From IMG/VR virus record IMGVR_UViG_2936345690_000002: a stretch of DNA of 64,000 nucleotides; one strand, given 5' to 3'. Numbering within the stretch: position 1 is the first letter of the stretch; every line of letters begins with the position of its first letter. This document shows, piece after piece, positions 11,763-64,000 of the stretch. Source of the stretch: a virus. Taxonomy: Duplodnaviria > Caudoviricetes. A model generated the notes under the pieces. It was not told where the DNA came from. It saw only the letters and a program-made list of their open reading frames with translations, and did not search any database. The position numbers and the translations under genes are program-made.

Positions 11763-11850
11763 CACGTCCCCGGTTATCTCAGATTCATATAGACAATTTA
11801 TATTGTGGTTATTATGCACGCCAGGGCCGCTCAGCGCCAGCAATTTCGGC

Positions 11851-18280: not shown

Positions 18281-18547
18281 ATGGCGAAATCGATCTGCAA
18301 ACAATGCGGCTCCACCTTGATGCGGTGGGCCGCCAATTCCTTCAACGGCTGGGTCTTCGTCTGGTGGATCGCCGCCTTCGTGGCGCTCACCCTCCAGTTG
18401 GAGGCGCTGCTGTACTGCTGTCTGTTCGCCGCCACGCTCAAGACGCTGCACGGCCTGCTGAACTGGGAGCGCCAGTGCAAGACATGCGGGTCGGACGATG
18501 TGATCCCGGCGGATTCGCCCGTGGGCAGGCGGCTGCTGGCCGATTAG
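18281..18547 (+). CDS. antisense moron, membrane protein with split Zn ribbon
   Basis: CKQCG...two TM segments...CKTCG. Confidence 0.65.
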   Translation: MAKSICKQCGSTLMRWAANSFNGWVFVWWIAAFVALTLQLEALLYCCLFAATLKTLHGLLNWERQCKTCGSDDVIPADSPVGRRLLAD

Positions 18548-33727: not shown

Positions 33728-33752
33728 GGATAGTCCCCTGTCTGTGGGCAAT

Positions 33753-35069: not shown

Positions 35070-35255
35070 TCAGGCAGGCAGCAGGAAATACGGCTGCCAG
35101 AACCACGGGCCGAACCAGCAGTTCAGCCGCACCAGCTGCACGAATTCATCCTGGTAGACGATGTCGAGTGCGGAACCGGCCTGGGCGTTCGAGCCCGGGA
35201 ACTGGATGCGGATGACCTTGTCGTCCTCTTCGATAATCTCGACCTCAAGCGTCAT
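35070..35255 (-). CDS. hypothetical protein
   Basis: MTLEVEIIEEDDK with RBS GAGG at the portal 3' end. Confidence 0.45.
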   Translation of the reverse strand: MTLEVEIIEEDDKVIRIQFPGSNAQAGSALDIVYQDEFVQLVRLNCWFGPWFWQPYFLLPA

Positions 35256-36633
35256 CCTCGTCCTCTTCTTCTTCCGCCGGTTTAGGCTTCTTGGGCTTCT
35301 TCGGTTTCGGCTCGGGCTCAGGTTCCGGCGACGGCGCATCTTCCTCGCCATCGGCATCGCTGCCCGGCTCGGCCAGATCGGGGATTTCGCCGGCCAGTTC
35401 CAGCGGGATGTTGGTGGACGGCACCAGCACCACGTCGCCGCCGTCCACGTCATCCAGGCCCATCGCCCGGCGTTTCTCGTTGACGGTCATGTAGGTGGCA
35501 GCGTTGATCCGGTCACCCTTTTCCTTGCGGCGCGGCTCCAGCGCGGGAATCGCCTCTTCGTCGTACCAGATCACCAAATCGTCGCCGAACAGCGGGGCCA
35601 GCCAGTTGTTCAGCTCCTCGAGATCGCTCTCCAGGAAGGGGATCACGGTGTCGGAGTAATAGGCGACCTTGGCTTCACCGTAATTAGAATATGTGCTTTC
35701 GCCCGGGATGTTGACCAGCTGCGGCGGGGTGTGGAACACGCCGGCGATGAAGCGGGCGGTAACCAGCATCGTCTCCCGGTGGTCCATGTCCTTCGGGCTG
35801 AGCGAAATCGGCGTCCATTTCATGCCGCCTTCGAGCACCATGGGCTTGCCGGCGTTGTGCTTGCCGGAGAACCGGTCGTCGAGCATGCGCTTGAGGCTGG
35901 AGCGCTGGTCATCGGTCAGGGATACCGGCTTGCCTTCGCGGTCGACAATCTCCAGCGCGCCGGAGGGGCGAGCTTCGTTATCGAGCAGCGCCTTGTTCCA
36001 GGCTTGCCCGGAATTGAACGTGTCCACGCCGAACGCGGCGGCCACCAGCGGCGGCAGGCCGATCGACGGGTTGAGCGGGTTGACGGTCTTCAGGTGCAGG
36101 ATGGCGCACTTGCCGGTGATCCGGTCGACCGGGAAGCGGATCGGCTTGGCCTGGCCGGGGCGGTAGTCGTACCAGGCGGGAAGCGCGCTCTGGGGCTGCG
36201 CCTGCACCGTCACCGACTGCGTCGGCAGGAGCCATAATTCTTTCGGCGGGTTGCCCTTGCGGCTGAACGGGTCGATGCCCTCGCCGTGGACGTAGGCATT
36301 CCCGCCGATCAGGCGGTAGGTGGCCATCGCCTCGCGGAAGCTCCGGCCGCCCGCCATCGGGTTGGGGCGTTCCAGCAGTTTCAGCAGCGGATGGTTCTCC
36401 AGCTTCACCAGCTTGCCGCCCTGCTTGCGGTAGACGTGCAGGTCCACCGAGGCGGACGCCCTGGCGAGCTTGGTCACGCAGGCGTAGACGATCGGGTTCT
36501 GCTCGTAGCCGTCCTTGGCCAGCAGGTCGAAGCGGCGTTCCAGCCAGCGGGCCGCGCCGATGCCGTAAAGGAACGTGGCGTTCTTGACGGCGAATTGATC
36601 GACCGCTTTGGAGCGGCGGGTGAACCAGGCCAC
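35245..36633 (-). CDS. HK97-family portal protein
   Basis: NPIVYACV, HPLLKLL.RPNP, NEARPSG, LEGGMKW, TYSNY, TVNEKR. Confidence 0.95.
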   Translation of the reverse strand: MAWFTRRSKAVDQFAVKNATFLYGIGAARWLERRFDLLAKDGYEQNPIVYACVTKLARASASVDLHVYRKQGGKLVKLENHPLLKLLERPNPMAGGRSFREAMATYRLIGGNAYVHGEGIDPFSRKGNPPKELWLLPTQSVTVQAQPQSALPAWYDYRPGQAKPIRFPVDRITGKCAILHLKTVNPLNPSIGLPPLVAAAFGVDTFNSGQAWNKALLDNEARPSGALEIVDREGKPVSLTDDQRSSLKRMLDDRFSGKHNAGKPMVLEGGMKWTPISLSPKDMDHRETMLVTARFIAGVFHTPPQLVNIPGESTYSNYGEAKVAYYSDTVIPFLESDLEELNNWLAPLFGDDLVIWYDEEAIPALEPRRKEKGDRINAATYMTVNEKRRAMGLDDVDGGDVVLVPSTNIPLELAGEIPDLAEPGSDADGEEDAPSPEPEPEPKPKKPKKPKPAEEEEDEDDA

Positions 36634-36636
36634 GGG

Positions 36637-38049
36637 CTACCAGATGCGGATGTCGGGGGTGACCGACCGGGTGCGCATCCAGTTCAGGAACTGCGTTGTG
36701 CTGTCCACCTGGTCGTCGTGCGGAGCGTTCGGAAAAGTCATCAGTTCCATCTCGTAATCGGTTAGCCAGGCGGCGTGCGTGGGCAGGCTCACCTTGCCCG
36801 CTTCCACGAGGGCGGAGACGGCGCTGGCACGGGTTTCTTTGTCTTTCTCCGGGTTGATCGCCAGCAACGGCAATTGCGTGCTATGTCGGAGATCCTGCAA
36901 AACCTGCTGGCCGGAGGATTTGTCCTCGATCAACACGGCGTTGGCGCCCCATGTTTCGGCGTGCTCGGCCACGCGGGCTTTGAGCTGAGGGTATTCCAGG
37001 CGTTTGACCAGCACATGCAGGAGGTCGTAGCCGTCCGGGCGTATGCCCCATGTGGTGCAGCAGCTCGGGTCATTCAATTCCGCCGCCTTGCTCGCGGTAT
37101 CCCAGCTCTGAACGATCTGCAGGTAGCTGTCCTGCGGCCGCTCGTGGCGTTTGAACCAGCCCGCCTTGAAGATGCCGCCTTCCGCCGGAGCCGGGCGTTG
37201 CTGGTACTGGCCGGCAAAGGCGTAGGAGCCCATGATATTCTTCTGTGCCTCGACCGCCGCCGCACTCTCGCGCTCGGGATGGAGCAGATCGCCTTCCTCG
37301 CGGACCACTTTGACGCGGCCGAAATCGATGACGGTGCGCGTCTCGGCAATCGCCGGGATGCAGAGGTTTTCCCATCCGCCCTTGGCCAGCAGGTGACCGG
37401 AGAGGTCATCCGCGTGAAGTCGCTGCATCACCACGACAATGACGCCGTTTTCTTTGTCGTCGAGGCGGGTGCAAAACCCCTGGTCGAACCACGTATTAGC
37501 TGTTTCCCGGTCAGCGTCCGAAAGGGCCTGCGCCGCATTCAGCGGGTCATCGACGATCAGGAAGTTGCCGCCTTCGCCGATGGCCGAGCCGCCGACCGAA
37601 GTGGCGAAGCGATGGCCGCGAGCGGTGGTGACGAATTTGCGTTTCTCGTTCTGGTCGCCGGTCAGGTGAACGCCGGGAAACACCCGCTTGTACCACTCCG
37701 ACTGGAGGATCAGGCGGGTATCCACGCTGTGCTTGAGCGACAGCACCTCGGCGTAGGAAGCGGCCAGGATGCGTTCGGATGGGTTATGCCCCAGCAGCCA
37801 TGCCGGCCATGCCACGGTGACCGAGATGGATTTCATGTAGCGCGGCGGTATGTTGATGATCAGCCGCTTGATCTCGCGACGGGTGCAGGCTTCGAGATAC
37901 TCCGCGATCAGGTCGATGTGCCAGTTGTGCTTGTAACTGGCGCCCGGATCGACCGTGGCGAAGGCTTTGCGGGTAAACGCCGCCAGGCGGGTGCGCAGGA
38001 GGGCGTCGAACGCCTTCTGGTCACTTACCTTGTTTTGCGTACTCGTCAA
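36637..38049 (-). CDS. terL: terminase large subunit
   Basis: NIPPRYMKS, IVDDP, MQRLH, SWDTA, IEDKSSG, HDDQVD. Confidence 0.95.
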   Translation of the reverse strand: MTSTQNKVSDQKAFDALLRTRLAAFTRKAFATVDPGASYKHNWHIDLIAEYLEACTRREIKRLIINIPPRYMKSISVTVAWPAWLLGHNPSERILAASYAEVLSLKHSVDTRLILQSEWYKRVFPGVHLTGDQNEKRKFVTTARGHRFATSVGGSAIGEGGNFLIVDDPLNAAQALSDADRETANTWFDQGFCTRLDDKENGVIVVVMQRLHADDLSGHLLAKGGWENLCIPAIAETRTVIDFGRVKVVREEGDLLHPERESAAAVEAQKNIMGSYAFAGQYQQRPAPAEGGIFKAGWFKRHERPQDSYLQIVQSWDTASKAAELNDPSCCTTWGIRPDGYDLLHVLVKRLEYPQLKARVAEHAETWGANAVLIEDKSSGQQVLQDLRHSTQLPLLAINPEKDKETRASAVSALVEAGKVSLPTHAAWLTDYEMELMTFPNAPHDDQVDSTTQFLNWMRTRSVTPDIRIW

Positions 38050-38530
38050 GCAGAGCCTTATCCTGCTCCGCCAGCTGTACCCCGTTCACGCTCACGTTCA
38101 CATTGGTATCGCCCTTGGAGCCAAATCGCTTCGGTGCCAGTTTCTCGGCCACCTTGATGCGCGTATCCACCCGCAGCTTGTCGCGTTGTGCGGTGGCGGC
38201 AAGGAACTCCTGCCGCGCCTGGCTATCCTGCGGTGAAACCCCATCGTCGTTGCTGCCGATATGCTCGCGCTCGGCGGGCTCGCCGTCTGCGATATCCACG
38301 GCCTCGTCCATGTAGGATTCCGCCTGCCAGTCGCGCGCACAGGCGTACTGGTCGCAAAACGCCTTGTATGTTTCCTCGCCAGCTGCACCTCTGGTAAGCC
38401 AACGGATCACGGTAGCTTTGTCCGGCATGTGCTCGTCGGAGCAGATTCGACGCAGCGATTCGCCGTTCGCCAACCGCTCACAGATGTCCGTGGCGAGCTT
38501 GGCGGAATATCGTGTCGGCCTTCCGGTCAT
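38021..38530 (-). CDS. terS: terminase small subunit
   Basis: GRPTRYS..LA..IC.RLANGESLR.IC, KLAPKRFG. Confidence 0.9.
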   Translation of the reverse strand: MTGRPTRYSAKLATDICERLANGESLRRICSDEHMPDKATVIRWLTRGAAGEETYKAFCDQYACARDWQAESYMDEAVDIADGEPAEREHIGSNDDGVSPQDSQARQEFLAATAQRDKLRVDTRIKVAEKLAPKRFGSKGDTNVNVSVNGVQLAEQDKALLDEYAKQGK

Positions 38531-42784: not shown

Positions 42785-43933
42785 ATGGAAGCGATCACCC
42801 CATCCGATGATCAGGCGAAAGCGATCCGGGCAATCGTTGATTGGTTCGGCGATGACAGCCGCGAGGAATTCTATCTGGCCGGTTTCGCCGGGGTCGGCAA
42901 GTCCACGATTGCCAACCTCGCCATCGAAGAGATCAAGGAGCAGCATAACGTCAGCAAGGTGCGAACCGCCGCATATACCGGCAAGGCCGCTTCCGTGCTC
43001 CGGAAGAAAGGCATCGAAGACGCCAGCACGATCCACAGCTTGATCTACACGCCGAAAGTGGATGAAGAGACCGGCGAGCTGAAATTCACCCTGTCGGAGG
43101 AGTCTGCGGCGGCGGAAGCAGACCTGATCGTGCTCGACGAATGCTCCATGATCGACGACCGCCTGGCCGACGACCTGCGTTCCTTCGGCAAGAAAATCCT
43201 CGTCATGGGCGATCCTGGGCAGCTGCCGCCGGTCAATGGCCAGGGCGCGTTCACCCGCAACGTGCCGGACGTCTTCCTGCATGAAATCCACCGCCAGAGC
43301 GCCGAAAGCCCGATCATCGAGCTGGCCACGCTGGCGCGCCAGGGGCTGCCCATCCCCCGGAACTACCGGAAGGGCGACGTGGAAGCCATGGTGTTGACCA
43401 AGGCGACGCAGGAGCTGATCTATCGGGAAACCACCCAGCCGATCTGCGGCCTGAACCGCGTCCGCTGGACCTATACCCAGCGGATGCGTGCCCGGAAGGG
43501 TTTCAGCGGCGAGCATCCTGTGGCAGGCGAGCGGATCATCTGCTGCCGGAACAATAACAAAAAGGGCTTGTTCAACGGCGGCATGGGGCAGTTGGTCACC
43601 CGGGGAGCGGACATCATCGGCGTGCGCGAGATCTATTCGCTCACCGTGGACATGGATGATCTGCACGGCACCACGGAGGATTTGCTGACCGACCCCTACC
43701 TCTTCGCCCACCACTTCAATGAGGGTAAGGCGCAGAAGATCCAGGGCGCGCGGCCGATGCTGAACGAGTTCGATTGGGGATACATCATCACCGCGCACAA
43801 GGCTCAGGGCAGTTCCTGGGACCACGTGACGGTGATAGATGACAGCGGGGCGTTTCGGGATAACCGCCGCAACTGGCTCTATACCGCCATCACACGGGCG
43901 GAGACTGGATTAACACTTTTGATGAGGGACTAA
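42785..43933 (+). CDS. RecD2/Dda-like SF1B helicase
   Basis: GFAGVGKS, DECSM, GDPGQLPPV, TAHKAQGS, YTAITRA. Confidence 0.92.
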   Translation: MEAITPSDDQAKAIRAIVDWFGDDSREEFYLAGFAGVGKSTIANLAIEEIKEQHNVSKVRTAAYTGKAASVLRKKGIEDASTIHSLIYTPKVDEETGELKFTLSEESAAAEADLIVLDECSMIDDRLADDLRSFGKKILVMGDPGQLPPVNGQGAFTRNVPDVFLHEIHRQSAESPIIELATLARQGLPIPRNYRKGDVEAMVLTKATQELIYRETTQPICGLNRVRWTYTQRMRARKGFSGEHPVAGERIICCRNNNKKGLFNGGMGQLVTRGADIIGVREIYSLTVDMDDLHGTTEDLLTDPYLFAHHFNEGKAQKIQGARPMLNEFDWGYIITAHKAQGSSWDHVTVIDDSGAFRDNRRNWLYTAITRAETGLTLLMRD

Positions 43934-51488: not shown

Positions 51489-51737
51489 ATGAGGCTCAAT
51501 GAGGCCATGGAGCGGCTGAAGAAGCACGTAGCGCAGGACGAGTTGCTGTACAGCCACGAGAAAACGCTGATCTGCCAGGTGATCGATAATTTCCAGGCGG
51601 AGGAAGAACGGAAAATCCATGAAACGTACGAGGCCAAAAAGCTGCTGCTTCGAAAGAACGACAAGCAGGCCGCCGTGCGGAAGTTATTTCGAGCGAAACC
51701 ATTAAACCTGAAGGAATTGGGCGATGACAAAGAGTAA
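51489..51737 (+). CDS. hypothetical protein
   Basis: RBS GGAGG. Confidence 0.55.
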   Translation: MRLNEAMERLKKHVAQDELLYSHEKTLICQVIDNFQAEEERKIHETYEAKKLLLRKNDKQAAVRKLFRAKPLNLKELGDDKE

Positions 51738-52527
51738 GAAACCCCAGCCGAAGCGTCGCCCGGCGACCAAAGGCTGCCACATGGACGGTGACAAACCGTT
51801 CTGGTCGGCTCTGATCCTCTCCGTCGTCGCCGCCTGCGGCATCGCGTACAGCGTCCAGAGCCAGCCCATCGATGCGGCTCGGTCGGCAAGCTGGGTGATT
51901 ACCGCCGAGGACAAGGCCACGCTGGAACGGGCGAACCGTTCCGCTGCGGTGGAAGCGCAAGAGCTGGTGAGCAAGCCGGTCATCCTTCAGGCGCCGAAAA
52001 AGCCGGAAGCTCCGAAGGAGGCGAAGAAGCAGGTGGCGAAGCTGGACGCGAAACAGGCGGCGAAGGAGGAAGCCAGGCAGAAGCGTGAGGCGGAGAAGCG
52101 AGTGCTTTATGACCTCGCCTACCGCGCCTCGATCCAGGAAGGCGTTGACCCCTACCTCTACATCGGCCTGCTGAAGTCGGAGAACTCGTTCAAGACCAGC
52201 ATGGACGTGAGCAGCGCAGGGGCTATCGGCCCGGCCCAGCTCCTGGCGAGCACGGCGGCGGAGATGGGGCTGAACCCCTGGAACCTGGAGCAGAACGTCA
52301 CCGGCGGCGCGCGGTATCTCAAGCGGAAGCTCGACTCGCTGGGGCAGGAAGCGCTCGCCATCGCCAGCTACAACATGGGCGAGGGGGCGCTGAAAGGCTG
52401 GATGAGGAAAGGCGGTCACCCGGAGCGGCTTCCGGCTGAGACGAAAACCTATGTGATGAAAGTCCAGATGAACGCTGCCTACGAGCGGCATCAGGGCACG
52501 CTGAAACAATACGCGGCGATGGAGTAA
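51724..52527 (+). CDS. membrane-anchored lytic transglycosylase (SLT)
   Basis: N-terminal TM; KSENSF catalytic Glu, SSAGAIGPAQL, ASYNMGEG, ETKTYV. Confidence 0.88.
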   Translation: MTKSKKPQPKRRPATKGCHMDGDKPFWSALILSVVAACGIAYSVQSQPIDAARSASWVITAEDKATLERANRSAAVEAQELVSKPVILQAPKKPEAPKEAKKQVAKLDAKQAAKEEARQKREAEKRVLYDLAYRASIQEGVDPYLYIGLLKSENSFKTSMDVSSAGAIGPAQLLASTAAEMGLNPWNLEQNVTGGARYLKRKLDSLGQEALAIASYNMGEGALKGWMRKGGHPERLPAETKTYVMKVQMNAAYERHQGTLKQYAAME

Positions 52528-55104: not shown

Positions 55105-55160
55105 GGCGGCTCGGGGGATTCCGCCGTAACATTTCGCCGTATGCGTAGGGTGTATAAGGA
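55105..55160 (+). other. candidate MOBF oriT / nic site
   Basis: TGCGTAGGGTGT^ATAAG at 55142-55158, against F TGCGTGGGGTGT^GGTG and R388 TGCGTATTGTCT^ATAG (recalled); about 70 bp upstream of the relaxase. Confidence 0.65.
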
Positions 55161-55227
55161 AGCCAATTCTTGCTCCAAACCGGCTCGGCGCTATGATGCG
55201 GGTGACGCTCAACCGTGAGGCTGCCCC

Positions 55228-56874
55228 ATGATTAACGCCACCTTCCCCGCTAACGCTGAGGCTGCCATCGGCTACTACGGCCACGCGGGCACGGAGCTGG
55301 AGAAGGTCGGGGAATGGCAGGGCAAAGGGGCGGAGAAGCTCGGCCTGTCCGGTGCCGTGGATATGGCCGACTGGCGGGCGCTTGTGCGGGGAAAAGCCCC
55401 TGACGGCACCAAGCTCGCCCAGCGACTGCGGGATGACCGCCGGGTGCTGCTCGATCTGACACTCAGCGTCAACAAGGATACCGCTGTGCTCCTCTCGCTG
55501 GTCGATCCCCGGATTGAAGGGGTAATCCAGCGGGCAAACGCGGTTGCGATGGAGCTGGCGGAATCCTACCTCGATACCCGCGTGAAGGGGCTGCTCGGCA
55601 CGGAGACGGTGCAGTCGGCGGCGATGATCTCGGCACCGTTCTACCACCAGATCACCCGGGCGCGGGAGCCGGGCTACCACATCCACAACACGATCATCGC
55701 CCTCACGCCGTATAAAGACCGCTGGTATGCCCCGGAGTTTGACCGGCTGGTATCGAACAGCGACCGGATAAAACGGCTATTCCACAGCCAAGTCGCCCGG
55801 GGCATGCGGGAACTGGGCTACCAGACGGAGCTGACGAAAGACAATTTCCGCGTGGTCGGCTTCCCGGATTCCATTCGGCGGGAGTTTTCCACCGGACAGG
55901 GGAACATCGACCACGAGCAGGCGATGCGGGAGACGGCGCTGTCCGAGCAAATCCGCCGGACAAGCGATCCGGTCGAGCTGCGAAAGCTGGAGGGCAAGCT
56001 CGGCTTCGTCAAATCGCCGAAAGGCCGGGCGGCGCTGGCCGTGCAGGTGCGGGAGAAGAAGCAACGCGATCTCGATCCGGCAACGCTCAAGGCAGATTGG
56101 TGGGGCAGGCTCACGCCCGAGGAGGCAAACGCCCTCCAAGCCGTCCTCCGGCAGGCGTCCAGCCGTGAACCCAGCAAGTTGCCTGACCATTCCCGGCAAT
56201 TCTTCGGCCAGTCGGTCAACCGGCTGAGCCAGCAGTATGGCCGCGTGCCGGAGGAAGACCTGTTCACCGACGCCCTCAAAACCGGCGTGGGCGAGGTGAC
56301 GCTGGGCGGCCTGCGGCAAACGCTCGAGCAATCCGAGCTGCTGCGGGTCACGGTGAACGGCACGCCCATGGTGCAGACATGGGAAAACCGCCAGAAGGAA
56401 AAGGAGCTATTGGCGTTCGCCCGTTCCGGCGGCATCGTCTGGATCAGCGGCAAGCCGGACGCGGCCACCGTCCGCGAGGCCGAGCAGCGTGCGGGCAAAA
56501 ACCCGCTCTGGGTCAAGGATGCGGGCAGCCAGCCGTTTGCCGAGCTGCACCGACTGAGTCAGGCAGCTGAGGCCGAGCAGCGTCGCATTGTGCTCCAGGG
56601 CCTGCCGCCGCGGAACGCCCCTGATGGCCACACGCTCCGCCTGCTGCAAGAGGTGGCCGGGCTGAAACCGCTTGACGATAAGCCTTTGAAGCCACGGTCA
56701 AGCGTGCTAAAGCTCCTGCCGAAAGCATGGCGGGAGTCGATGCAGCAGCACGTTGGTCGGCTGAACCGGATGCATTTCTTCAAGTCCATCCAGCAGGAGC
56801 ACGCCATCGATGAGCAGCGCACAAGAGCGGCTAAGGAGCAAGCTGAACGGCGTGAGGCCGTCTGGGAACGGTGA
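55228..56874 (+). CDS. MOBF (TrwC/TraI-type) relaxase lacking an intact helicase domain
   Basis: GYY, W.GKGAEKLGLSG, DLTLSVNK, H..TR..EPGYHIH, REFS; no Walker A. Confidence 0.9.
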   Translation: MINATFPANAEAAIGYYGHAGTELEKVGEWQGKGAEKLGLSGAVDMADWRALVRGKAPDGTKLAQRLRDDRRVLLDLTLSVNKDTAVLLSLVDPRIEGVIQRANAVAMELAESYLDTRVKGLLGTETVQSAAMISAPFYHQITRAREPGYHIHNTIIALTPYKDRWYAPEFDRLVSNSDRIKRLFHSQVARGMRELGYQTELTKDNFRVVGFPDSIRREFSTGQGNIDHEQAMRETALSEQIRRTSDPVELRKLEGKLGFVKSPKGRAALAVQVREKKQRDLDPATLKADWWGRLTPEEANALQAVLRQASSREPSKLPDHSRQFFGQSVNRLSQQYGRVPEEDLFTDALKTGVGEVTLGGLRQTLEQSELLRVTVNGTPMVQTWENRQKEKELLAFARSGGIVWISGKPDAATVREAEQRAGKNPLWVKDAGSQPFAELHRLSQAAEAEQRRIVLQGLPPRNAPDGHTLRLLQEVAGLKPLDDKPLKPRSSVLKLLPKAWRESMQQHVGRLNRMHFFKSIQQEHAIDEQRTRAAKEQAERREAVWER

Positions 56875-57358
56875 GCCCACGCAGGCCGACGGCGTCGCCA
56901 CGGCATCGTCCAGCAACAAGAAACGGGCGGAAGGGGCGAACCAGTCCAAGCTCTGCCTGCGGTACTTCCCGCTCGAAAGCAGCCCCGGATTCGATAACCG
57001 CTGGCTGGCCATGCCCTATTCCTCGATCTGGGACATCAGGGGCAAGCGGGATTTTTCGCAGATGGTCGTTCGCTACATGGACGGCAAGAAGGTCACGATT
57101 GACGGGCCGAACCTGAAATCCATCGCCGACCGGCTGGAAGGCGGCCGCCTGGGCGACGTGATTCAGGCCGATCCGATGGAAATGGCCGGGGAGCGGCACT
57201 GCGTCACGCTCACCGTGCGGGGCGATGAGCTGGAGCCGCTGCTGCAGGCGCTCAAGCTGTTCCGCACCGCGAAGGTGGATGGCGTTCACGCTGCGGACGA
57301 TAGCGATCTGTTGCAATGCCTCGTGACCAAGCTCACGCTGGAGCAGGAGAAGGTGTGA
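56810..57358 (+). CDS. hypothetical protein coupled to the relaxase
   Basis: AMPYS...VTIDGPNL; start uncertain. Confidence 0.55.
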   Translation: MSSAQERLRSKLNGVRPSGNGEPTQADGVATASSSNKKRAEGANQSKLCLRYFPLESSPGFDNRWLAMPYSSIWDIRGKRDFSQMVVRYMDGKKVTIDGPNLKSIADRLEGGRLGDVIQADPMEMAGERHCVTLTVRGDELEPLLQALKLFRTAKVDGVHAADDSDLLQCLVTKLTLEQEKV

Positions 57359-57470
57359 TGCTGGCGGTGGCATCCGGTGGGGATAAGCGAGCGAAGCGAG
57401 CGCGCGGCGGCGGTCGCGCCAGTTAGCTGGGTGACTGAATGGGGCGGCGTGGCTAGCCGCCCCGTGGCGG

Positions 57471-57893
57471 TCAGGCGGCTTCGCCGGTGGCTGCTGCGTG
57501 AGCCTCGAATATCGCCTGATAATCCCGCTCCAGCTGCTCCGCGTTGTCATTCTCGCCAGCCGAATAGGCCAGCTCGATTTGCTCGCGGCCATGCTTCACC
57601 AGCGGTTCGATAGCCGCCAGCAGCTTCGGCGCGGCATGCATCAGCCGCACGCGGGCGGCGTTCTCCTCGTGCGTGCCGAACGGAGCGCCGGTGATTCGCT
57701 GGTAGAGGTCTTGCGCCTGCTGCTCGGTCTGGCAATCGGCGATGGCCTCCACGCCTTCTCCGTCGATGTGGCCGTAGAGCGTCCAGCAATCGGCTTCCGC
57801 CCGTTCGCAAACCTCGAAATAGAAATGGCCGGGCTTGTCAGGTTCTTCGTAGCGGCGGCACGGGCTGATTTCGTAGTTGTCGAATACCTTCAT
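57471..57893 (-). CDS. hypothetical protein
   Basis: RBS AAGGA; NAARVRLMHAAPKLL motif. Confidence 0.7.
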   Translation of the reverse strand: MKVFDNYEISPCRRYEEPDKPGHFYFEVCERAEADCWTLYGHIDGEGVEAIADCQTEQQAQDLYQRITGAPFGTHEENAARVRLMHAAPKLLAAIEPLVKHGREQIELAYSAGENDNAEQLERDYQAIFEAHAAATGEAA

Positions 57894-57945
57894 GGTGTTT
57901 TCCTTCCTTGGTTGCGGGGCAGGCATGCAACCCGCCCCTCGGTAG

Positions 57946-58155
57946 TTATGCCTTCTTCGCGGCGAGCCTGTCGGCCTCGTCCATGGCTTTCCGCAATGCT
58001 ATGGCCTTATCAATCGGCGCTTCGCTCTCTGCCGTGAATGTTGCGCGCTTCGCTTGGCCGTGTCCTTCGCTGGATACGACAATCACGAAGTCCAGCCCGT
58101 TCCTGACCACGCGGAATGTGCCGTTGTCGTGGTGGATATTGGAAATGCTCAACAT
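57946..58155 (-). CDS. hypothetical protein
   Basis: RBS AAGGA; MLSISNIHH. Confidence 0.55.
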   Translation of the reverse strand: MLSISNIHHDNGTFRVVRNGLDFVIVVSSEGHGQAKRATFTAESEAPIDKAIALRKAMDEADRLAAKKA

Positions 58156-58219
58156 AAGTTTTAATTCCTTGGTGGTGGGGCGGCAGGCCAGCGCCGCCCC
58201 GGTTGATTCATGGCTCCGG

Positions 58220-58591
58220 CTACCAGCTCGCCTGATAGACGACAGAGCGCCAAACGCCCTCTTCTTCCTCTTCCAGCCACGCGATGGCTTCCCGGAAGAT
58301 GGCCAGATCTTCCTCCTTCTCGCTGCCGTCGCTGGCACCGAAAAAGAAGCCGGTCGTATGAGGCAACTGCTCCGCCTCAACCGCCGCGATAATCCGCTCC
58401 ATCCGTTCCTTATCCAGATAGATGGGCTGGCACTCGTCCTCGCCGCCCGCGAATTCCTTGACGATGAAGCCGTGAAGGTTCGGGTGCTTCCGCCAGTAGC
58501 CGAGGTCGTAGCGCTCCCCCTTCTTGTCGCCGCGCTTCCGCTTTACTCCATGGAAGTATTTTTCTCCGGTGAGGTACATATCGAGTCCCAT
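58220..58591 (-). CDS. conserved phage hypothetical protein (MGLDMYL/YWRK family)
   Basis: MGLDMYL, GYWRK.PNLHG, GFFFG, YQASW. Confidence 0.8.
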   Translation of the reverse strand: MGLDMYLTGEKYFHGVKRKRGDKKGERYDLGYWRKHPNLHGFIVKEFAGGEDECQPIYLDKERMERIIAAVEAEQLPHTTGFFFGASDGSEKEEDLAIFREAIAWLEEEEEGVWRSVVYQASW

Positions 58592-58627
58592 AGCAAACTC
58601 CATTTTGCTGTTAATCGTTAGGTGTGC

Positions 58628-58863
58628 GTTTCAGGTCGGCTTCTTCGCCGTCCTGAAACCTTGCCAAGCGGCGAGCTGGGCGGGGTGAATCCGCAAGGGT
58701 CGCCGGGCCGTCTGCACGGAGCGCAGCGCAGGAAGATGGTTCGGCGACTCGCGCAGCCCTTGCGGAGAGGGGGCGGAACTGCCCCCTCCTGCGTCAGGAA
58801 TGCGCAGGGCCTGGTCGCCGCAAGGCGACGGAGCGAACAGCGACCCCGGAGCACTCCGCCCGG
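58628..58863. other. large multibranch secondary structure (ssDNA promoter-like or cis-RNA)
   Basis: outer stem 58676-58687/58852-58863; CCGCAAGGG/CCCTTGCGG; further inner hairpins with GCGCAGC and GCAA loops. Confidence 0.65.
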
Positions 58864-58999
58864 ACGCCCTACCCGGCATTCCGCTTCAGCGCCGCCCGCT
58901 TTCTGCATCTATCGCACGGGCAACTTGACAACCACAGAATGCCCTTGATGGCTGCTGTCACAACGAAAGCCGCGACGCACAAAATCCACACCAATAAAT

Positions 59000-59371
59000 T
59001 CATACAATCCCCGCCTGCTTGCGGATGGCGGAAAGGGCGGCTTGTGCATCTGGCGCGCGGGTTTCCCATTCGCGCTCCAGCACCACGTCAACCAATTCAG
59101 GCTCTATCGTGATGCCAGTGACGATCTGCCTGCGCCGTATAGCTCGCGCCATATCCTCCACCGTTTCCGGGTCATCCAGCAGGGCGCGGAGATAGACATC
59201 AATAAATGAACTGCGGATAGATTCCCCTGCCTGCCGAATGAGAAAAGCCCGGTTATCGGCTCGAGTTTCATCCCATGTGCCGTTGTCGTAACCCTGACTA
59301 TACCGATAGACGGTTTCCCATCGCGCTTTAGCGACCGCCTCAAGCGCCCGTTCATGTGCTGTCTGTGTCAT
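59000..59371 (-). CDS. hypothetical protein
   Basis: TGATG coupling; ERALEAVAKA..AQAALSA. Confidence 0.6.
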   Translation of the reverse strand: MTQTAHERALEAVAKARWETVYRYSQGYDNGTWDETRADNRAFLIRQAGESIRSSFIDVYLRALLDDPETVEDMARAIRRRQIVTGITIEPELVDVVLEREWETRAPDAQAALSAIRKQAGIV

Positions 59372-59682
59372 CAATATAAATCCTCGCTGAATAGTTCCTT
59401 GCTGTCGGGGTTCCCGCTCTTGTGACGAATCTGGCCAGCGGCGGTAGCCACCTCGAATGCCTCCCTCCGGTTCATGAACACGCCCCGCTGGTCGATGAAA
59501 CCCTGCTCGGCTTTGTGAACCGCCTTCGTGTAGCCGCTGACCACGTTGAATTCCGGCATCCGGGCAAGCTGACCGTGCATCACCATGTCGAAATGCCGCG
59601 CCCCGGCGATGATCGTATCGCCGATCTTGCAGGCGGCGCAGACAACGCGGCGCTGAGTGCGGTCGTGACCGGGCGTGGTCAT
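59371..59682 (-). CDS. conserved phage hypothetical protein
   Basis: VCAA, GARH, QGF.DQ.G.F..R.EA, LFSEDLY. Confidence 0.8.
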   Translation of the reverse strand: MTTPGHDRTQRRVVCAACKIGDTIIAGARHFDMVMHGQLARMPEFNVVSGYTKAVHKAEQGFIDQRGVFMNRREAFEVATAAGQIRHKSGNPDSKELFSEDLY

Positions 59683-60047
59683 ACTGCGGTTCCTTTCTCT
59701 GCCGTTGGTTTATCGAAGCGGGCAAGCCCGAGAGGAAGCGGCAAACTCTCGCGTGATCCATCCGCGTTTATCCGCGAGTAGCTGATGACATGGAGCATCA
59801 GCCCTTCCTGTTCCAGCGGCACCACGGCGGCTTTGCCCTCCATGATGGCCGCAATCGCCGCTTCGCCGAGCTTCTGCCGGAGCGGGTCGGCGCGCAGCGC
59901 GGCCTTCGCATCCTTATGAGCCTGCCGCCCGTCGCGGTGGCCACGCATCTGATCCACCGGCTTGGGCTGGTTGAGCGCGTCCCGGTTGCGGTTCTGCCAG
60001 ATGGCCGCCCGGATGGTTTGGATGGCTTCTTCGTGATGCGTGGTCAT
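59679..60047 (-). CDS. hypothetical protein
   Basis: ATGA coupling. Confidence 0.6.
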   Translation of the reverse strand: MTTHHEEAIQTIRAAIWQNRNRDALNQPKPVDQMRGHRDGRQAHKDAKAALRADPLRQKLGEAAIAAIMEGKAAVVPLEQEGLMLHVISYSRINADGSRESLPLPLGLARFDKPTAEKGTAV

Positions 60048-60331
60048 GCAGCGGTTCCTTTAAGTTTGTCGCGGATGGCGCGGGCTTTACCGAAAGCGGC
60101 CTCCATCTCCTCGGACTGCCAGCTGGCCTCATAGCAGGTACGGTCGTGGATGTGGTCGAAGGCGAGGATAGCGTCCAGCGCCTCCAACAGCTCGGAGGTG
60201 TCGGCGGCGTGCTGACAAATTATCTCATTAACCTTGTCCAGCGGCACATAGGCGCACAAGCTAACCAAGACATGGGGCAGCGACTGCACCTTCTCGATCA
60301 TCTCCTTCATGTTTCCTTGCTCGATGGTCAT
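60044..60331 (-). CDS. hypothetical protein
   Basis: starts within a junction repeat; ELLEAL...KARA. Confidence 0.6.
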   Translation of the reverse strand: MTIEQGNMKEMIEKVQSLPHVLVSLCAYVPLDKVNEIICQHAADTSELLEALDAILAFDHIHDRTCYEASWQSEEMEAAFGKARAIRDKLKGTAA

Positions 60332-60540
60332 GCCGCCTCGCTTTCCGGCTGCTTCGGCGTGAAGCCGTCGCAGCTTTTCAGCCATAGCGGGTCGTAGTTG
60401 AACGGCCAGGCGAACCAGCCCTTGCGGATGCCGTGCGGGTCGCCGGTCACGGCAGCGGCGGGGTTGGCGCATTGGCTATGGGCATCGCCGGGCAGGTTGC
60501 GGCGGAAGATGCAGGCGTAGCAGTTGGGTTTCGGGGTCAT
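60328..60540 (-). CDS. small Cys-rich protein
   Basis: CYAC..R...GDAHSQC, GWFAWPFNYDP.W..C. Confidence 0.7.
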   Translation of the reverse strand: MTPKPNCYACIFRRNLPGDAHSQCANPAAAVTGDPHGIRKGWFAWPFNYDPLWLKSCDGFTPKQPESEAA

Positions 60541-60836
60541 GCCGCCTCGCTTTCCGGCCACATGCCAAGCTCACGCAGGGCGGCCTTTTTCGCTTCCGGC
60601 AGCGCTTCCAGGGTCAGGATGCTGTCGGGGTGGATGTAGACACGGCTTACCGGGTGCAGCTTACTTCCGGGTCGATTCCGGTAATCCCAGTCGTCAACGA
60701 GGTGGTGGGCGTTGCGTGTACCGTAAGCGTCGTAGTCGCCAGCGGCGGTAGCGCGGAGTATGACCGTCAAATTGCAGTGCTTCGCCGCCCATGCGGCAGT
60801 CAGCGGGTCGGTGAAGAAGAGGTGCTTCTGGGTCAT
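60537..60836 (-). CDS. hypothetical protein
   Basis: bounded by junction repeats; YIHPDS. Confidence 0.65.
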   Translation of the reverse strand: MTQKHLFFTDPLTAAWAAKHCNLTVILRATAAGDYDAYGTRNAHHLVDDWDYRNRPGSKLHPVSRVYIHPDSILTLEALPEAKKAALRELGMWPESEAA

Positions 60837-61444
60837 GCCGCCTCGCTTTCCACCGTCATCTCGGCGATGGCATCGTCCACCAGCTTGTAAAGCGAGCATC
60901 CGAGAGGGATGTCTTCGAGCGCGGCCTGCTGGCTGGGGGCGTAGGCTTTCTGCTGGCTGTTCGATACCTTGTACCGATTCCAGCCGAGCACCTGCTCCGC
61001 GATGATCGCCCCGCGCTTCCAGTTTTCGCAGATCAGTTCTTCGACGCGGCTCCATGCCCGTGCCGCGTCTTCTTCAGCCCTGGCCAGCTTGTCCTTCAGG
61101 ATGCCGACTTCACCGCCGGGATGGGTCATCCGCTCAAGGTAGGCATCCCAGCCGTGGGTCTTGATCCAGAGCGCGGAGCTGATGACGGCCTGGTGCATCG
61201 CCCCGGTTGTTCCGAACTCGCCTGCCGCGTCGCAGGCGGCCTTGCTCAACGCCTTCGCGTCTTCGTTATCCTCGTCGATCACGTCGTAAACGTTCGAGTA
61301 GCCGGTAAATCGGGGGTCTGCCTCCGGGTGGCCGTCCAGCCATTCCAGCGCGGCGATCAGCATCCGGCGGCAACATTCCTCGTAGGCTCCGCCAAAGCCG
61401 CTGATTTCGCGCATGGCGGGGGTAAATTTGTACTTCTGGGGCAT
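60833..61444 (-). CDS. hypothetical protein
   Basis: RBS GAGG; EISGFGG.YE, TGAMH. Confidence 0.7.
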   Translation of the reverse strand: MPQKYKFTPAMREISGFGGAYEECCRRMLIAALEWLDGHPEADPRFTGYSNVYDVIDEDNEDAKALSKAACDAAGEFGTTGAMHQAVISSALWIKTHGWDAYLERMTHPGGEVGILKDKLARAEEDAARAWSRVEELICENWKRGAIIAEQVLGWNRYKVSNSQQKAYAPSQQAALEDIPLGCSLYKLVDDAIAEMTVESEAA

Positions 61445-61530
61445 AGCACCTCTCTTTCAGGTTGGTTGTTAGCGAGCCGCAGGGCGGCGAGCGCGGCGGG
61501 TTGCCCCGCCGTGCCCTGTTGGTTGACTGA

Positions 61531-62085
61531 CTATGCGGCGGTGGCCTTGGTGATGGCATCGTCATTCCCTTGAATCCTCTGAGTGAGGAGCAAGTCGATT
61601 TCAGGCCAGCGCGGATGGTTTTTGTCAGCCACCAGCCGCATTAGTTCGATCGTGTCGTTAGTCAGCACCAGCCTATCCAGCAGCTCCGGCGCGGCGGCGA
61701 TCAGCCGGGCGTTGGCCAATGCCTCGGCACGCGGTCGTGGCGCATACTGGAAGTCACCGACTTGGGCGACGATGGAGCCGGTAGCATCATCGCAATAGAC
61801 CAGTACCGGGCTTTCTCCACGGCTCGGATCGCCGCACTCCCACGGCCCCGGCGTGTGCCGTGCCGTGTCCGTCTGCGGTTCAGCGTTGTCCAGCGGCTCC
61901 AAATCGGCAACCGGCACGGTGAAGAACGGGTAGTCGCCATCGCTCTGGAGCGTCACGCTCCGGTGTTCGACCCCGGTTGCCCGCGTGTCGTCACCGACCA
62001 CTCCGTAGTTCGGCTTGATGCAGTCGTAGACGATGGTTCCGGCAGGGGTGCCAAATCGCTCCGCTTTCAGTTTGTATTTCCTCAT
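61531..62085 (-). CDS. hypothetical protein with HTPGPW / ANARLIAAAP module
   Basis: RBS GGAGG; widespread phage motif. Confidence 0.75.
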   Translation of the reverse strand: MRKYKLKAERFGTPAGTIVYDCIKPNYGVVGDDTRATGVEHRSVTLQSDGDYPFFTVPVADLEPLDNAEPQTDTARHTPGPWECGDPSRGESPVLVYCDDATGSIVAQVGDFQYAPRPRAEALANARLIAAAPELLDRLVLTNDTIELMRLVADKNHPRWPEIDLLLTQRIQGNDDAITKATAA

Positions 62086-62136
62086 GATGTGCCTCCATGC
62101 TGTTGGTGGGCGGCGCATCCACGCCGCCCGGTTTCG

Positions 62137-62496
62137 TTATGCGGCTTGTAGCGCGGCCAATTGCTTTTCCCGCTCCGCGATTTCTTCGGTGAGTCGAGCG
62201 ATTTCGCGTTGTCGCTTCTCTTCCGCCTCCCGCTCCAGTCGCTCCTTGCGGGCTTCTTCCGTTTCGCTCGGTACGGCTGAGAAAAATCGCTGGCCTTTCC
62301 CCGAAATCGGCTGGACGGTGTTGTAATCGAATCCCATCTTCTCACCGAGCGCCGCCCATGCGCGATTGGCATTCTCCTGCGGCGAACTGCTCATGGGCTG
62401 CCCGCCAGACAGGTACATCGCGGGTGTTGGCCTGCAAGCTTCAAGCAGTGTCTTCAGGTCTTCCTCAGTCATCTCGTATTCGGTTCTTGGGTACAT
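62137..62496 (-). CDS. hypothetical protein
   Basis: RBS AAGGA; QENANRAW..LG.KMGF. Confidence 0.7.
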   Translation of the reverse strand: MYPRTEYEMTEEDLKTLLEACRPTPAMYLSGGQPMSSSPQENANRAWAALGEKMGFDYNTVQPISGKGQRFFSAVPSETEEARKERLEREAEEKRQREIARLTEEIAEREKQLAALQAA

Positions 62497-62595
62497 AGCG
62501 GTTCCTTCCATTGCATATGCATTACGGTTAAATGATTTTCCAATTCTCGGCGATTCGTCAGAAACAGGGCGGCGCTCTCACGCCGCCCCGATTCG

Positions 62596-64000
62596 TTACG
62601 CCGCTTCCGCCACGGCCTTGGCTTCTTCCGCACCGAACGCCATGCCTTCGGGGAGCCACTGTCGCAGCGCTTCCACCTGCTCCGGCGTTTTGCCGTGCGT
62701 CTGCGGTTCGGCAAACGCTTCGTTCAGTTGCGTCACCAGCGCCGCCCGTTTCGAGTTCCGGCGGTGCGATACCCACAGGGCACCGAGGACGCGCTCGCCG
62801 ACCTCGAGCAACTGCCCGATCTTGATGCGGCCAAAGAAGTTGGCGGCAGTCGGTCGCCAGTATGCGGCCACGTTCACCCCGGTCTGAGCCAGTGCGGCAT
62901 CGTAGACCGTCCGCTGCTTGCCAGCGCCGGGAGCGAGCTTCGGCTGGAGCGTCATCGCCGTGCAGTAGGCCAGAATCCGGTGCTTGTCGGCCTCGTCCAG
63001 CCGCTGGAAGGCGGCGAGCTGGGCGGCTTCGGTCTTCTCCCGCAGCCACGCCAGCGGCAGGGCTTCGCGGATGGCTTCCAGTCGTGCGGCGGCGGCGGTC
63101 TGCTCGCCTCCGCTGGGGCGTGGGTAGCTCTGGTTGAAGCTGACGTTCGCCCCGTCAAACCCGCCCTGGCTGGTCAGCACCTTCCGGGCGGCGGTCACCA
63201 CCAGCAGGTCGAAGGCGATGGCCGGGTTTTCGGCGATGGCGACCTGAGCCACCTGCGTCCGGTAGGCTTTCAGGTCGTCGATCAGCGCCTGCGAGAGGGC
63301 GGGCTTGGCCGGGGCGGATTCTTCGCTGTCTTCCTCGTCGCTGCTGGCCTGAGCGGTGGCGGCGGCTTTCTTGTCCTCCGGCTTCACCAGCCCTTTGTCG
63401 ATGCTGAGCCTGCCGCCCCAGACCACTCTGACGAAGCATCCGGCCAGCTTCTTCTGCTCGGGGTCGAAGTCGGTGAATGATTCCAGCTTCTCCTCGACAG
63501 CTTCTCGTTTCTCTTCCGCCAAGCGGCACTGCTCATAAAGGGATTCCAGCTCGTCATCGTCTTCGGTCGCGTCAATCGCGTCCTCGATCCGCTGTTCCTC
63601 AGCCTTTGCCGCTTCCAGTTCGGCCATCAGGTCGGCGGGAGCATCCAGCGGCACGGGCTGAATCCGGCCAAATTTCGAGAGCGTCGAGTAATCGCCCTCG
63701 AAATCCGCCTCCACCCATCCCCAGCCATCGGCGCGGAGCTTTTCGGCTTCCGCTTCCAGCTTTTCCCCGGCCAGGCGGTGCAGCAGCGTCATGTCCTCCA
63801 GATACACGTCCTCCCCGAACAGGTCAGACCTCGTCTTGCCGCCAGCGGCTTGATAGGCTTCCAGCCCGACAAATGCGGTCAGCTTGCTGTCGGCCTTCGC
63901 CATCTTGTCGGTCAGCAGCGAGCGAATTTCGCTGGCGTGGTGAATCTGCCAGCCATTCTTCACCTGCTTGTAAACCTTCAGCTGCCGCTTGCGGTCATCC
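62596..64000 (-). CDS. plasmid/ICE-type ParB-like protein, C-terminal part (5' end outside window)
   Basis: FVGLEAY.AAGG...DLF, GWGWVE, WRPTA.NFFGR, WLPEGM.F; frame open to the window edge. Confidence 0.8.
   Translation of the reverse strand, partial: DDRKRQLKVYKQVKNGWQIHHASEIRSLLTDKMAKADSKLTAFVGLEAYQAAGGKTRSDLFGEDVYLEDMTLLHRLAGEKLEAEAEKLRADGWGWVEADFEGDYSTLSKFGRIQPVPLDAPADLMAELEAAKAEEQRIEDAIDATEDDDELESLYEQCRLAEEKREAVEEKLESFTDFDPEQKKLAGCFVRVVWGGRLSIDKGLVKPEDKKAAATAQASSDEEDSEESAPAKPALSQALIDDLKAYRTQVAQVAIAENPAIAFDLLVVTAARKVLTSQGGFDGANVSFNQSYPRPSGGEQTAAAARLEAIREALPLAWLREKTEAAQLAAFQRLDEADKHRILAYCTAMTLQPKLAPGAGKQRTVYDAALAQTGVNVAAYWRPTAANFFGRIKIGQLLEVGERVLGALWVSHRRNSKRAALVTQLNEAFAEPQTHGKTPEQVEALRQWLPEGMAFGAEEAKAVAEAA

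Follow-up and report, generated by a model that had tools for sequence, protein, structure and literature searches.

The 64,000-nt stretch analyzed here (the window; IMG/VR record IMGVR_UViG_2936345690_000002) is part of an integrated planctomycete phage genome, and this phage genome carries in its backbone the DNA-processing (Dtr) half of a MOBF conjugation system together with genes of the type found in the leading region of plasmid F. This anatomy is secure. A MOBF relaxase gene, preceded by a nic-like motif, lies with a complete set of virion genes inside one element bounded by a single pair of attachment (att) sites, and the linkage of relaxase and terminase is retained in the closest relatives of the phage. 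Beyond the window end, the same element encodes a TrwB/VirD4-like coupling protein. Our preferred account, to which we give a little less than an even chance, is that the module serves mobilization of the phage genome through the type IV secretion system (T4SS) of a helper element.

The relaxase and its partner gene

The relaxase operon and the motif in front of it occupy the following positions.

55142-55155, plus strand: nic-like motif TGCGTAGGGTGT/AT (TGCGTAGGGTGTAT), 73 nt before the relaxase ATG
55228-56874, plus strand: MOBF (TrwC/TraI-type) relaxase, 548 aa, by Pfam, NCBIfam and the TrwC structure sequence
56810-57358, plus strand: 182-aa open reading frame (ORF) overlapping the relaxase stop, a conserved partner of the relaxase

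The initial annotation had named a MOBF relaxase, and the assignment holds: the protein scores above both family cut-offs, and its His triad and N-terminal tyrosines are conserved. Residues 12-294 match Pfam TrwC (E = 5.1e-40; 138.3 bits against a cut-off of 25), and the NCBIfam MobF model is matched with 133.6 bits against a cut-off of 100, while the scores stay under the cut-offs of the TIGR02686 and TraI equivalogs. No other part of the protein matches any family, and a fused SF1 helicase domain is absent. In the alignment with the sequence of the TrwC crystal structure (E = 7e-22), the His-triad block FYHQITRAREPGYHIH pairs with FRHETSRERDPQLHTH; identity to R388 TrwC and to plasmid TraI proteins is ~27%. 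Residues Y16, Y17, D76, H140, H151 and H153 are invariant in all four members of the relaxase family, with H140, H151 and H153 aligning with the TrwC motif, and Y16/Y17 are the probable catalytic residues. In structure, the C-terminal half is similar to MobF relaxases beyond their relaxase domain (TM-scores of 0.52-0.56), which serves as a lead only.

Close relatives of this protein are few. A search of 5.8 billion proteins returned three others at E < 1e-100, all of 521-547 aa, including a protein of Tundrisphaera sp. TA3 and one encoded on a 90-kb metagenome contig, 21.6 kb of which make up the locus referred to below as L023. Even within this clade of short relaxases the proteins are only 40-46% identical. 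Among 50,697 public phage genome records there was one weak match to the relaxase, and no PHROG family matches it; relaxase peptide patterns gave no match in a viral contig collection, where exact patterns can detect only close relatives. The 182-aa ORF belongs to no Pfam, NCBIfam or PHROG family. Its homologues directly follow the relaxase in L023 and in genome G514, and a 155-aa ORF takes that place in the Tundrisphaera genome (G518).

A conserved nic-like motif precedes the relaxase gene

The nic-like sequence that the initial annotation had seen just upstream of the relaxase is conserved in relatives and matches the nic cores of R388 and F. By this likeness, the nick would fall between 55153 and 55154. 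Taken alone, the motif is within chance, as 16 of 100 shuffled sequences gave a match with up to two mismatches allowed. The 12-mer GCGTAGGGTGTA occurs once only in the 9.4-Mb host genome; it is identical upstream of the Tundrisphaera TA3 relaxase and recognizable as TTGCGTGATGTCT upstream of the L023 relaxase, so that both close homologues carry the motif (three of three members of the short-relaxase clade, counting the window). In an alignment of the three upstream regions, 67% of the columns are identical and GCGT...GT.T is invariant, and the core GCGTAGGGTGT matches the cores of GCGTATTGTCT/ATAG in the R388 record and GCGTGGGGTGT in the F record. The surroundings of the motif contain no inverted repeat. 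Conserved blocks alone had suggested a sigma-70-like promoter (TTGCTC...TATGAT) on the downstream side of nic; it was discarded, as a consensus scan of 54-64 kb yielded no site.

Relaxase and virion genes share one att-bounded element

The window corresponds to G000:C1:3459263-3523262 and falls within an 8.67-Mb contig belonging to a planctomycete genome of 9.4 Mb (99.3% complete; estimated contamination 3.8%). It is part of an island with a GC content of ~0.62 in a chromosome of GC 0.71; on the window scale, this island extends from roughly -9.7 to +88.7 kb. The island is a single att-bounded unit of ~98.35 kb: a direct repeat of 19-20 nt, CGCTTCTGCAAGAAAGACGA, lies at -9672 and 88679, the left copy with one mismatch, and the core has exactly two copies in island and genome with up to two mismatches allowed. 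The left copy is situated inside the 3' end of a class I/II aminotransferase gene, and the right copy adjoins a tyrosine integrase gene at 87531-88565. Four same-genus genomes keep the aminotransferase flank up to the att point. The empty site was found in two genomes (G514 and G513), in which an 81-89-bp piece of the aminotransferase 3' end matches both att sites of the host. The attR copy of this gene end is host-like and the attL copy is a lower-GC substitute from the element, which thus restores the aminotransferase gene into which it integrates.

Pfam searches over the 143 ORFs of the island and its borders identified one integrase, one HTH_17 excisionase-like ORF and no further recombinase; no tRNA was found at the island borders. 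Terminase, portal, capsid, protease, tail, tape measure, lysis and integrase genes are thus enclosed, with the relaxase, in one att-bounded unit. To judge by its sequence, the element is a temperate siphovirus-type prophage of ~98 kb that its own tyrosine integrase inserted into the aminotransferase 3' end. The initial annotation had pointed to a chimeric join, or an att boundary between the phage and relaxase parts, as the finding that would overturn its proposal. Neither was found in the 8.67-Mb contig, where one att pair and one integrase account for the whole element. Its label of a possible phage-plasmid has to be given up, as the element is integrated in the chromosome and the 143 scanned ORFs include no ParA or plasmid Rep family.

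Two further features of the island and its surroundings concern other insertions. A DDE_5/DDE_Tnp_1 transposase gene at ~74871-76274 on the minus strand, between the DUF932 gene and the RepB and coupling-protein genes, has a host-like third-position GC of 0.90. To the right of attR, at ~88.8-90.5 kb, ~1.7 kb with a GC of 0.46-0.58 precede normal host DNA; this stretch has no homology to the sequence that follows the aminotransferase in same-genus genomes and may be what a previous insertion at this site left behind. At ~90.6 kb, just past the right end of the island, lies a repeat of ~150 nt that is present in many copies and both orientations in same-genus genomes, a behavior like that of miniature inverted-repeat transposable elements or repetitive extragenic palindromes.

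The linkage of terminase and relaxase is a trait of this phage lineage

Homologues of the large terminase (TerL) at E <= 1e-20 were collected from 16 places in 11 genomes of the host's family. At five of the 16, a TrwC match lies on the same contig, 15-19 kb from TerL.

G000, the window's own TerL
G511, contig C1: TerL 80% identical
G518, Tundrisphaera: TerL 71% identical
G422, contig C27: TerL 71% identical
G422, contig C4: TerL 30% identical; also with a coupling protein, an excisionase-like ORF and an integrase

The linkage of terminase and relaxase, which the initial annotation had suggested looking for in relatives, therefore recurs, and it is present at all four TerL places of at least 71% identity, the window's own included. 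At the other 11 places, where TerL is 30-48% identical, no TrwC match was found on the contig, and in five of the genomes concerned TrwC is not matched anywhere. The linkage thus characterizes this phage lineage rather than the phages of the family as a whole.

In the complete Tundrisphaera chromosome, a low-GC island keeps the same gene order, with identities of 38% for the coupling protein, 46% for DUF932, 62% for the ParB-like protein, 45% for the relaxase, 71% for the terminase and 80% for a giant helicase; portal and capsid genes are present as well. The gene order is also kept in a 258-kb contig of a same-genus genome. The relaxase frames of G511, G422 C27 and G512 measure 891-912 aa, the length of a relaxase-helicase fusion, and are ~25-28% identical to that of the window; helicase domains are confirmed by Pfam for the G512 copy alone.

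Smaller low-GC islands were observed in G512 C8 (L065-L066), G514 C39 (L063-L064) and G518 C1 at ~1.268-1.293 Mb (L067-L068). They share with the element the integrase, the excisionase-like ORF, the coupling protein, the giant helicase and a few small genes; some combine integrase and coupling protein with a relaxase, others pair the coupling protein with the giant helicase. The stretches seen contain no virion genes, and G512 has no TerL homologue at E <= 1e-20 anywhere. Such islands could be mobilizable islands or satellites of the phage lineage.

Homologues of F leading-region genes point towards the nic-like motif

Downstream of the relaxase operon, the genes run on the minus strand, back towards the motif.

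57471-62511, minus strand: 14 small ORFs (44-203 aa) pointing back to nic, from ORF calls
58604-58868, no strand assigned: structured G+C-rich intergenic stretch of 265 nt, from folding z-scores
62596-64512, minus strand, running beyond the window end at 64000: ParB-like gene of the F YfjB/HerB type, 638 aa, by homology to F
73332-74153, minus strand, beyond the window: DUF932 gene, 40% identical to the F copy adjoining oriT (E = 2e-66)

The block of minus-strand genes described initially is present and ends in the ParB-like gene, with a count of 14 small ORFs in place of about 13. Over 598 aa, the ParB-like protein has 30% identity with a ParB-family protein of 652 aa encoded in the F leading region (E = 1e-52); it matches phrog_7783 over its full length (5e-82) and ParB_N and HTH_ParB weakly. 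In the F record, the leading-region ParB-like and DUF932 genes all point towards oriT. If the plus strand is nicked at the motif, the transferred strand (T-strand) would likewise be the template of the leading-region genes here, from 57471 to ~65954. The likeness to a leading region that the initial annotation proposed is thereby strengthened, since both the ParB-like and the DUF932 genes have homologues in the F leading region with the same orientation to nic. The F protein is named YfjB/HerB in a 2026 preprint (PMC13370423), which describes its induction in the recipient from the single-stranded DNA (ssDNA) promoter Frpo2 and counts 426 plasmid and 3 phage homologues; another study places the genes of leading regions on the T-strand (PMC11541004).

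The intergenic stretch at 58604-58868, noted at the outset as foldable, does fold as plus-strand ssDNA (z = -3.85; none of 200 shuffles as good) and less clearly so as minus-strand RNA (z = -2.29). It belongs to no relevant Rfam family, is not conserved and has no copy elsewhere in the genome or in the loci compared; over 54-64 kb, Rfam gave only a sub-threshold DUF805b match inside the ParB-like gene.

The content of the block varies among relatives. In L023 the ParB-like gene lies within ~600 bp of the relaxase operon, and in Tundrisphaera ~15 kb with genes on both strands separate the two. In the window, three of the small ORFs match PHROGs of unknown function (839, 7900 and 1273) and the rest have no family match.

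Repeats within the block were also noted. A 24-nt junction (GGTCATGCCGCCTCGCTTTCC..) recurs at the starts of three consecutive small genes (60326-60349, 60535-60558 and 60831-60854). As a result, the three share their ribosome-binding stretch and first codons, and the genes before them all finish in ...ESEAA; shuffling of gene cassettes may have left the junction behind as a recombination scar. A shared domain behind the recurring ...ESEAA ends and GKRGGMT starts was considered and dropped, as the repeated junction accounts for both. The ORFs at 57471-57926 and 61531-62118, both on the minus strand, have a common C-terminal domain (phrog_1273) and a 40-nt DNA repeat at 57617 and 61677, which points to probable duplication or domain shuffling within the block. 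The methylase-like ORF of the element was compared with the methylase of the F leading region and rejected as its counterpart, there being no sequence similarity between them.

The element encodes a coupling protein

The initial annotation had remarked that the window holds neither a coupling protein nor a T4SS. For the T4SS this still stands, and a coupling protein was found in the element 17 kb beyond the window.

80954-82441, following a RepB/ParB-like gene: TrwB/VirD4-fold coupling protein (T4CP), 495 aa, by protein atlas, family profile and structural model

By itself, the protein is a marginal Pfam case (TraG-D_C at 20.2-23.3 bits against a cut-off of 22), and it is the only TraG-D_C match in the genome. 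In the protein atlas it falls among TrwB_AAD_bind/TraG-D_C clusters with a value of 0.98; its relatives number 1,008, and TraG-D_C is carried by 42 of the 60 examined. A profile of the family matches DotL (8e-14) and TrwB (1.8e-4). The AlphaFold model (pLDDT 92.4) has Cag-beta and TrwB as its best fold matches (E ~1e-11; TM-score 0.57-0.69). The protein has an N-terminal helix, which we read as a membrane anchor, and the Walker A motif GSSGYGKT. Its homologue in the Tundrisphaera element is the 38%-identical protein mentioned above.

A model of mobilization through a helper T4SS

We tentatively favor mobilization because an intact, conserved coupling protein and correctly oriented recipient-side establishment genes make little sense otherwise, and because the same module occurs in islands without phage genes. 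After excision, the relaxase would cut the plus strand at the nic motif, putatively at 55153/55154, and would remain bound to the 5' end of the cut strand. The membrane-anchored TrwB/VirD4-like coupling ATPase (~80.95-82.44 kb) would then pass the relaxase-DNA complex to a T4SS channel supplied by another element. The DNA 3' of the nick would enter the recipient first, bringing the relaxase operon, the variable small ORFs and the YfjB/HerB-like ParB gene and, later, DUF932. The transferred strand would be the template for all leading genes, as in the F leading region, which would allow their early expression. Such a phage could spread by two routes, in virions and by borrowed conjugation.

A number of observations weigh against this model. 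One is that a helper T4SS is not in sight, because VirB4 models are empty in host and family and nearly so in the phylum. The models PF03135, PF12846 and PF11130 gave nothing in the host genome, nor did PF02534 or TIGR03744, the last of these having no positive control. No VirB4 or mating-pair-formation (MPF) family occurs among the 143 ORFs of the element region. PF03135 found nothing in the Tundrisphaera genome or in four same-genus genomes, and it matched none of the 121 family genomes and a single one of the 401 from the phylum. The helper machinery invoked by the initial annotation thus has no identified source in these genomes. As for the coupling protein, G511 gave only a weak match (E = 7.5e-5) and G422 C27 none.

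The nic region also departs from the plasmid pattern. No hairpin was found 5' of nic, with z-scores of -0.41, +0.27 and +0.46 in the three elements against -7.2 in R388. The motif lies on the coding strand of the relaxase, whose gene would therefore lead, whereas R388 and F use the opposite strand; the initial annotation had rightly flagged this position of the relaxase on the leading side of nic.

The resemblance to a leading region has its own gaps. Small ORFs with any match resemble phage families rather than plasmid ones, and the ParB-like and DUF932 families occur in phages too (phrog_7783 and phrog_12094). SSB, PsiB and ArdA families were not seen in Pfam scans of the element ORFs. The ssDNA hairpin promoters expected from the F comparison did not materialize: we found no convincing ssDNA promoter and no conserved or Frpo-like structure, and the stretch upstream of the ParB-like gene holds a small Zn-ribbon ORF and no unusual fold (z = -1.1). 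Finally, a host-type insertion sequence (IS) lies within the element at ~74.9-76.3 kb, so this copy may be ageing.

Alternative explanations

The strongest competitor, which we consider rather unlikely, is that the relaxase is the replication initiator of the phage itself. It would nick the conserved site and prime rolling-circle (sigma) replication of the excised genome, with a RecD/TraI-type helicase and a clamp-like protein assisting and concatemers being made for the terminase; the coupling protein and F-like genes would have other roles or be relics. The helicase in question is encoded as follows.

42785-43933, plus strand: RecD/TraI-type SF1 helicase, separate from the relaxase (AAA_30 4e-22; UvrD_C_2 7.5e-16)

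A 62% identical homologue of this helicase lies 8 kb upstream of the L023 relaxase. From 42.8 kb onwards, the plus strand also encodes YqaJ and phrog_10477 exonucleases, a phrog_3657 protein and an AAA ATPase, and there is a DNA_pol3_beta_2 match within 42-88 kb. No replication initiator, primase or DnaB-type replicative helicase family was identified among the 143 ORFs, which yielded only the RecD-like helicase, the exonucleases, the AAA ATPase and the DNA_pol3_beta_2 match. The relaxase occupies the same place at all four TerL places of at least 71% identity, as a core gene would, and next to no T4SS genes turned up in the phylum sample. The nic motif shares the strand of the relaxase and sits just upstream of its gene, an arrangement seen where a relaxase also starts replication, as with NicK of ICEBs1. 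What replication does not explain is the conserved, motif-intact and membrane-anchored coupling ATPase in the element, G518 and G422 C4, nor the F-oriented homologues of YfjB/HerB and DUF932. The relaxase and coupling-protein pair is also found in islands of a genome without a terminase homologue (G512); since relaxase and T4CP occur together in islands without detected virion genes, the module is not merely a phage replication device. The near-absence of this relaxase from phage records and PHROGs, described above, likewise speaks against a phage replication protein. Mobilization and relaxase-primed replication are not mutually exclusive.

Two further proposals dispense with the helper T4SS. 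There is a small chance that a planctomycete phage lineage took relaxase, nic and coupling protein into its core and that the module may drive DNA transfer or delivery other than by a T4SS, possibly by a route tied to the phage particle, or with the small relaxase/T4CP islands as hitchers of the phage. It is improbable, in our estimate, that relaxase and coupling protein work without a classical T4SS through a planctomycete-specific route, possibly the phage particle or another envelope machine. The distribution of the genes makes this idea worth stating: TrwC relaxases occur in 48 of the 121 family genomes and coupling-protein relatives in 21, often 10-45 kb apart on one contig, against none with VirB4 by PF03135, and a planctomycete PLSDB plasmid with TraI and a neighboring AAA-like protein is typed as mobilizable, without MPF. 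There is, however, no positive evidence for an alternative machine; VirB4 may be too divergent for Pfam or may reside on elements outside species-representative genomes, and the single PF03135 match in the phylum shows that the model can work there.

We put little belief in the view that a phage long ago fused with a conjugative or mobilizable element and that the plasmid-like genes are its decaying leftovers, with no present function. This view would accommodate the missing MPF genes, a relaxase without the helicase domain still present in the G511, G422 and G512 relatives, and the IS inserted in the region. Yet relaxase, partner ORF, ParB-like, DUF932 and coupling-protein genes are intact, with 38-62% identity in another genus, and the catalytic residues and nic motif are conserved. 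An assembly chimera or two adjacent elements in the manner of phage-ICE tandems (ICE, integrative and conjugative element; described in PMC13651849) is highly improbable despite the 3.8% estimated contamination, and is rejected because of the single att pair, the single integrase and the linkage in relatives, the window being internal to its 8.67-Mb contig, the gene order being repeated in the complete Tundrisphaera chromosome and the 258-kb contig, and the plasmid-like genes being interleaved with phage modules around the circle.

Other genes of the element

The virion, packaging and lysis genes form one module on the minus strand, within which the following genes were assigned by Pfam.

8000-38530, minus strand: virion, packaging and lysis module, by Pfam, with lysin and holin ORFs placed by eye
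13280-16330, minus strand: tail protein
18544-20262, minus strand: tape measure protein
31779-33080, minus strand: HK97-type major capsid protein
33089-33751, minus strand: S78 prohead protease
35245-36633, minus strand: portal protein
36637-38049, minus strand: large terminase (TerL)
38021-38530, minus strand: small terminase

A scan of 43 additional ORFs yielded 16 Pfam families. The virion stretch includes Mu-F-like, head-completion, connector, HK97-gp10-like, tail-completion, tail-tube and tail-assembly-chaperone families, as well as a GH108 lysin with PG_binding_3 and holin families, whose ORFs were placed by eye at 10389-11843. The region at 51.5-53.4 kb had been considered as a lysis cassette and was rejected once its 82-aa ORF proved not to be hydrophobic and the GH108 lysin and holins had been located at 10.4-11.8 kb. 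It contains a different enzyme.

51724-52527, plus strand: lytic transglycosylase (Pfam SLT, 2.2e-11), distinct from the GH108 lysin

This SLT gene lies 2.6 kb upstream of nic, and a homologue is found ~630 nt upstream of the L023 relaxase. We read the hydrophobic N-terminal stretch of the protein as a probable membrane anchor. The F record also has an SLT gene beside oriT; the two proteins are without sequence similarity, and the idea that they are counterparts was abandoned.

The left part of the window holds a large gene.

1693-7980, minus strand: helicase/methylase-like protein, 2095 aa (Helicase_C)

It contains SNF2/DrmD-like and MAD2 methylase-like stretches, all under cut-offs. The protein is 62-80% identical in G518, G511, G422 and G514 and is, with TerL, among the most conserved genes of the element family; it is also present in small islands without virion genes. 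It may be similar in kind to the large anti-restriction proteins of P1 and plasmids. The cargo of the left arm of the element (L002:13169-16249, window ~-4831..-1751; L002:9991-13069; L002:16413-17078; window 414-1151) comprises a 1026-aa Type ISP restriction-modification enzyme, a UDG-family protein, a GNAT protein, a Cas4-like PD-(D/E)XK nuclease and a ThyX thymidylate synthase. Beyond the window, at ~67477-70406, two genes encode unusual phage cargo, a 553-aa protein with a cytidine/deoxycytidylate deaminase domain (L003:3477-5138) and an LCIB/C-type beta-carbonic-anhydrase-like protein (L003:5573-6406).

Comparison with known systems

Gene flow by phages and gene flow by conjugative elements are treated as separate matters. 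Two kinds of bridge are known: phage-plasmids, which resemble plasmids only in how they are maintained, and phage-ICE tandems, in which two elements stand side by side. Here, the DNA-processing half of conjugation and F-type leading genes reside within one att-bounded phage genome and are kept in the closest phage relatives across three genera. We found no description in the literature of a phage lineage with relaxase, nic and coupling protein, supplementary lists lying outside the search; the 122 phages with plasmid features tabulated for PMC7969092 and the 3 phage HerB homologues of PMC13370423 may include similar cases. If the module works, the phage could spread through both virions and cell contact, with a wider host range and an escape from receptor limits. 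At the level of the host's family there is a related puzzle, in that relaxases and coupling proteins are common and VirB4 was not found. YfjB/HerB, a plasmid establishment protein characterized recently, is now placed in a prophage of a distant phylum.

Phage-plasmids of the P1, N15 and SSU5 types are extrachromosomal replicons that move as virions (PMC12282955). The element resembles them as a hybrid of phage and plasmid-type genes and differs in being integrated, in having only ParB-family proteins and no ParA or Rep families found, and in the nature of its plasmid-type genes, which belong to conjugative DNA processing. Phage-ICE tandems, according to the report in Sci Adv 2026 (PMC13651849), arise by accretion of two elements at an att site; the T4SS comes from the ICE, and the authors consider the tandems not to be hybrids. 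They likewise couple a phage to conjugation functions, and both routes of spread are proposed for them; in contrast, the element has a single att pair, a single integrase and no T4SS, and its linkage is conserved across genera.

With the MOBF Dtr regions of R388 (TrwA-TrwB-TrwC and oriT) and F (TraI, TraD and oriT), the element shares a TrwC-fold relaxase with His triad and Tyr pair, the nic core GCGT-NNN-GT-N-T and a TrwB-like T4CP. Its relaxase, by contrast, is ~27% identical and without fused helicase, its nic is on the coding strand of the relaxase with no hairpin 5' of nic, and its T4CP gene is 25 kb away, beside a RepB/ParB-like gene. Likeness to the F leading region consists in full-length YfjB/HerB and DUF932 homologues directed towards nic, with variable small ORFs in between. 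The differences are that ssb, psiB and ardA families and Frpo-like structures were not found in the element, that the relaxase operon is located between nic and the block, and that the small ORFs are phage-like where matched.

The closest parallel is provided by integrative and mobilizable elements (IMEs) with their own coupling protein. Like them, the element has an integrase and att sites, a relaxase and a nic-like site, a dedicated T4CP and no MPF genes; the VirB4-type ATPase and MPF genes that define a conjugative element were not found in it. Unlike them, it is ~98 kb long and has a full virion, packaging and lysis set, with no helper T4SS detectable in host or family. As far as its genes tell, the element is a hybrid mobile element, like an IME that brings its own coupling protein and yet a complete phage.

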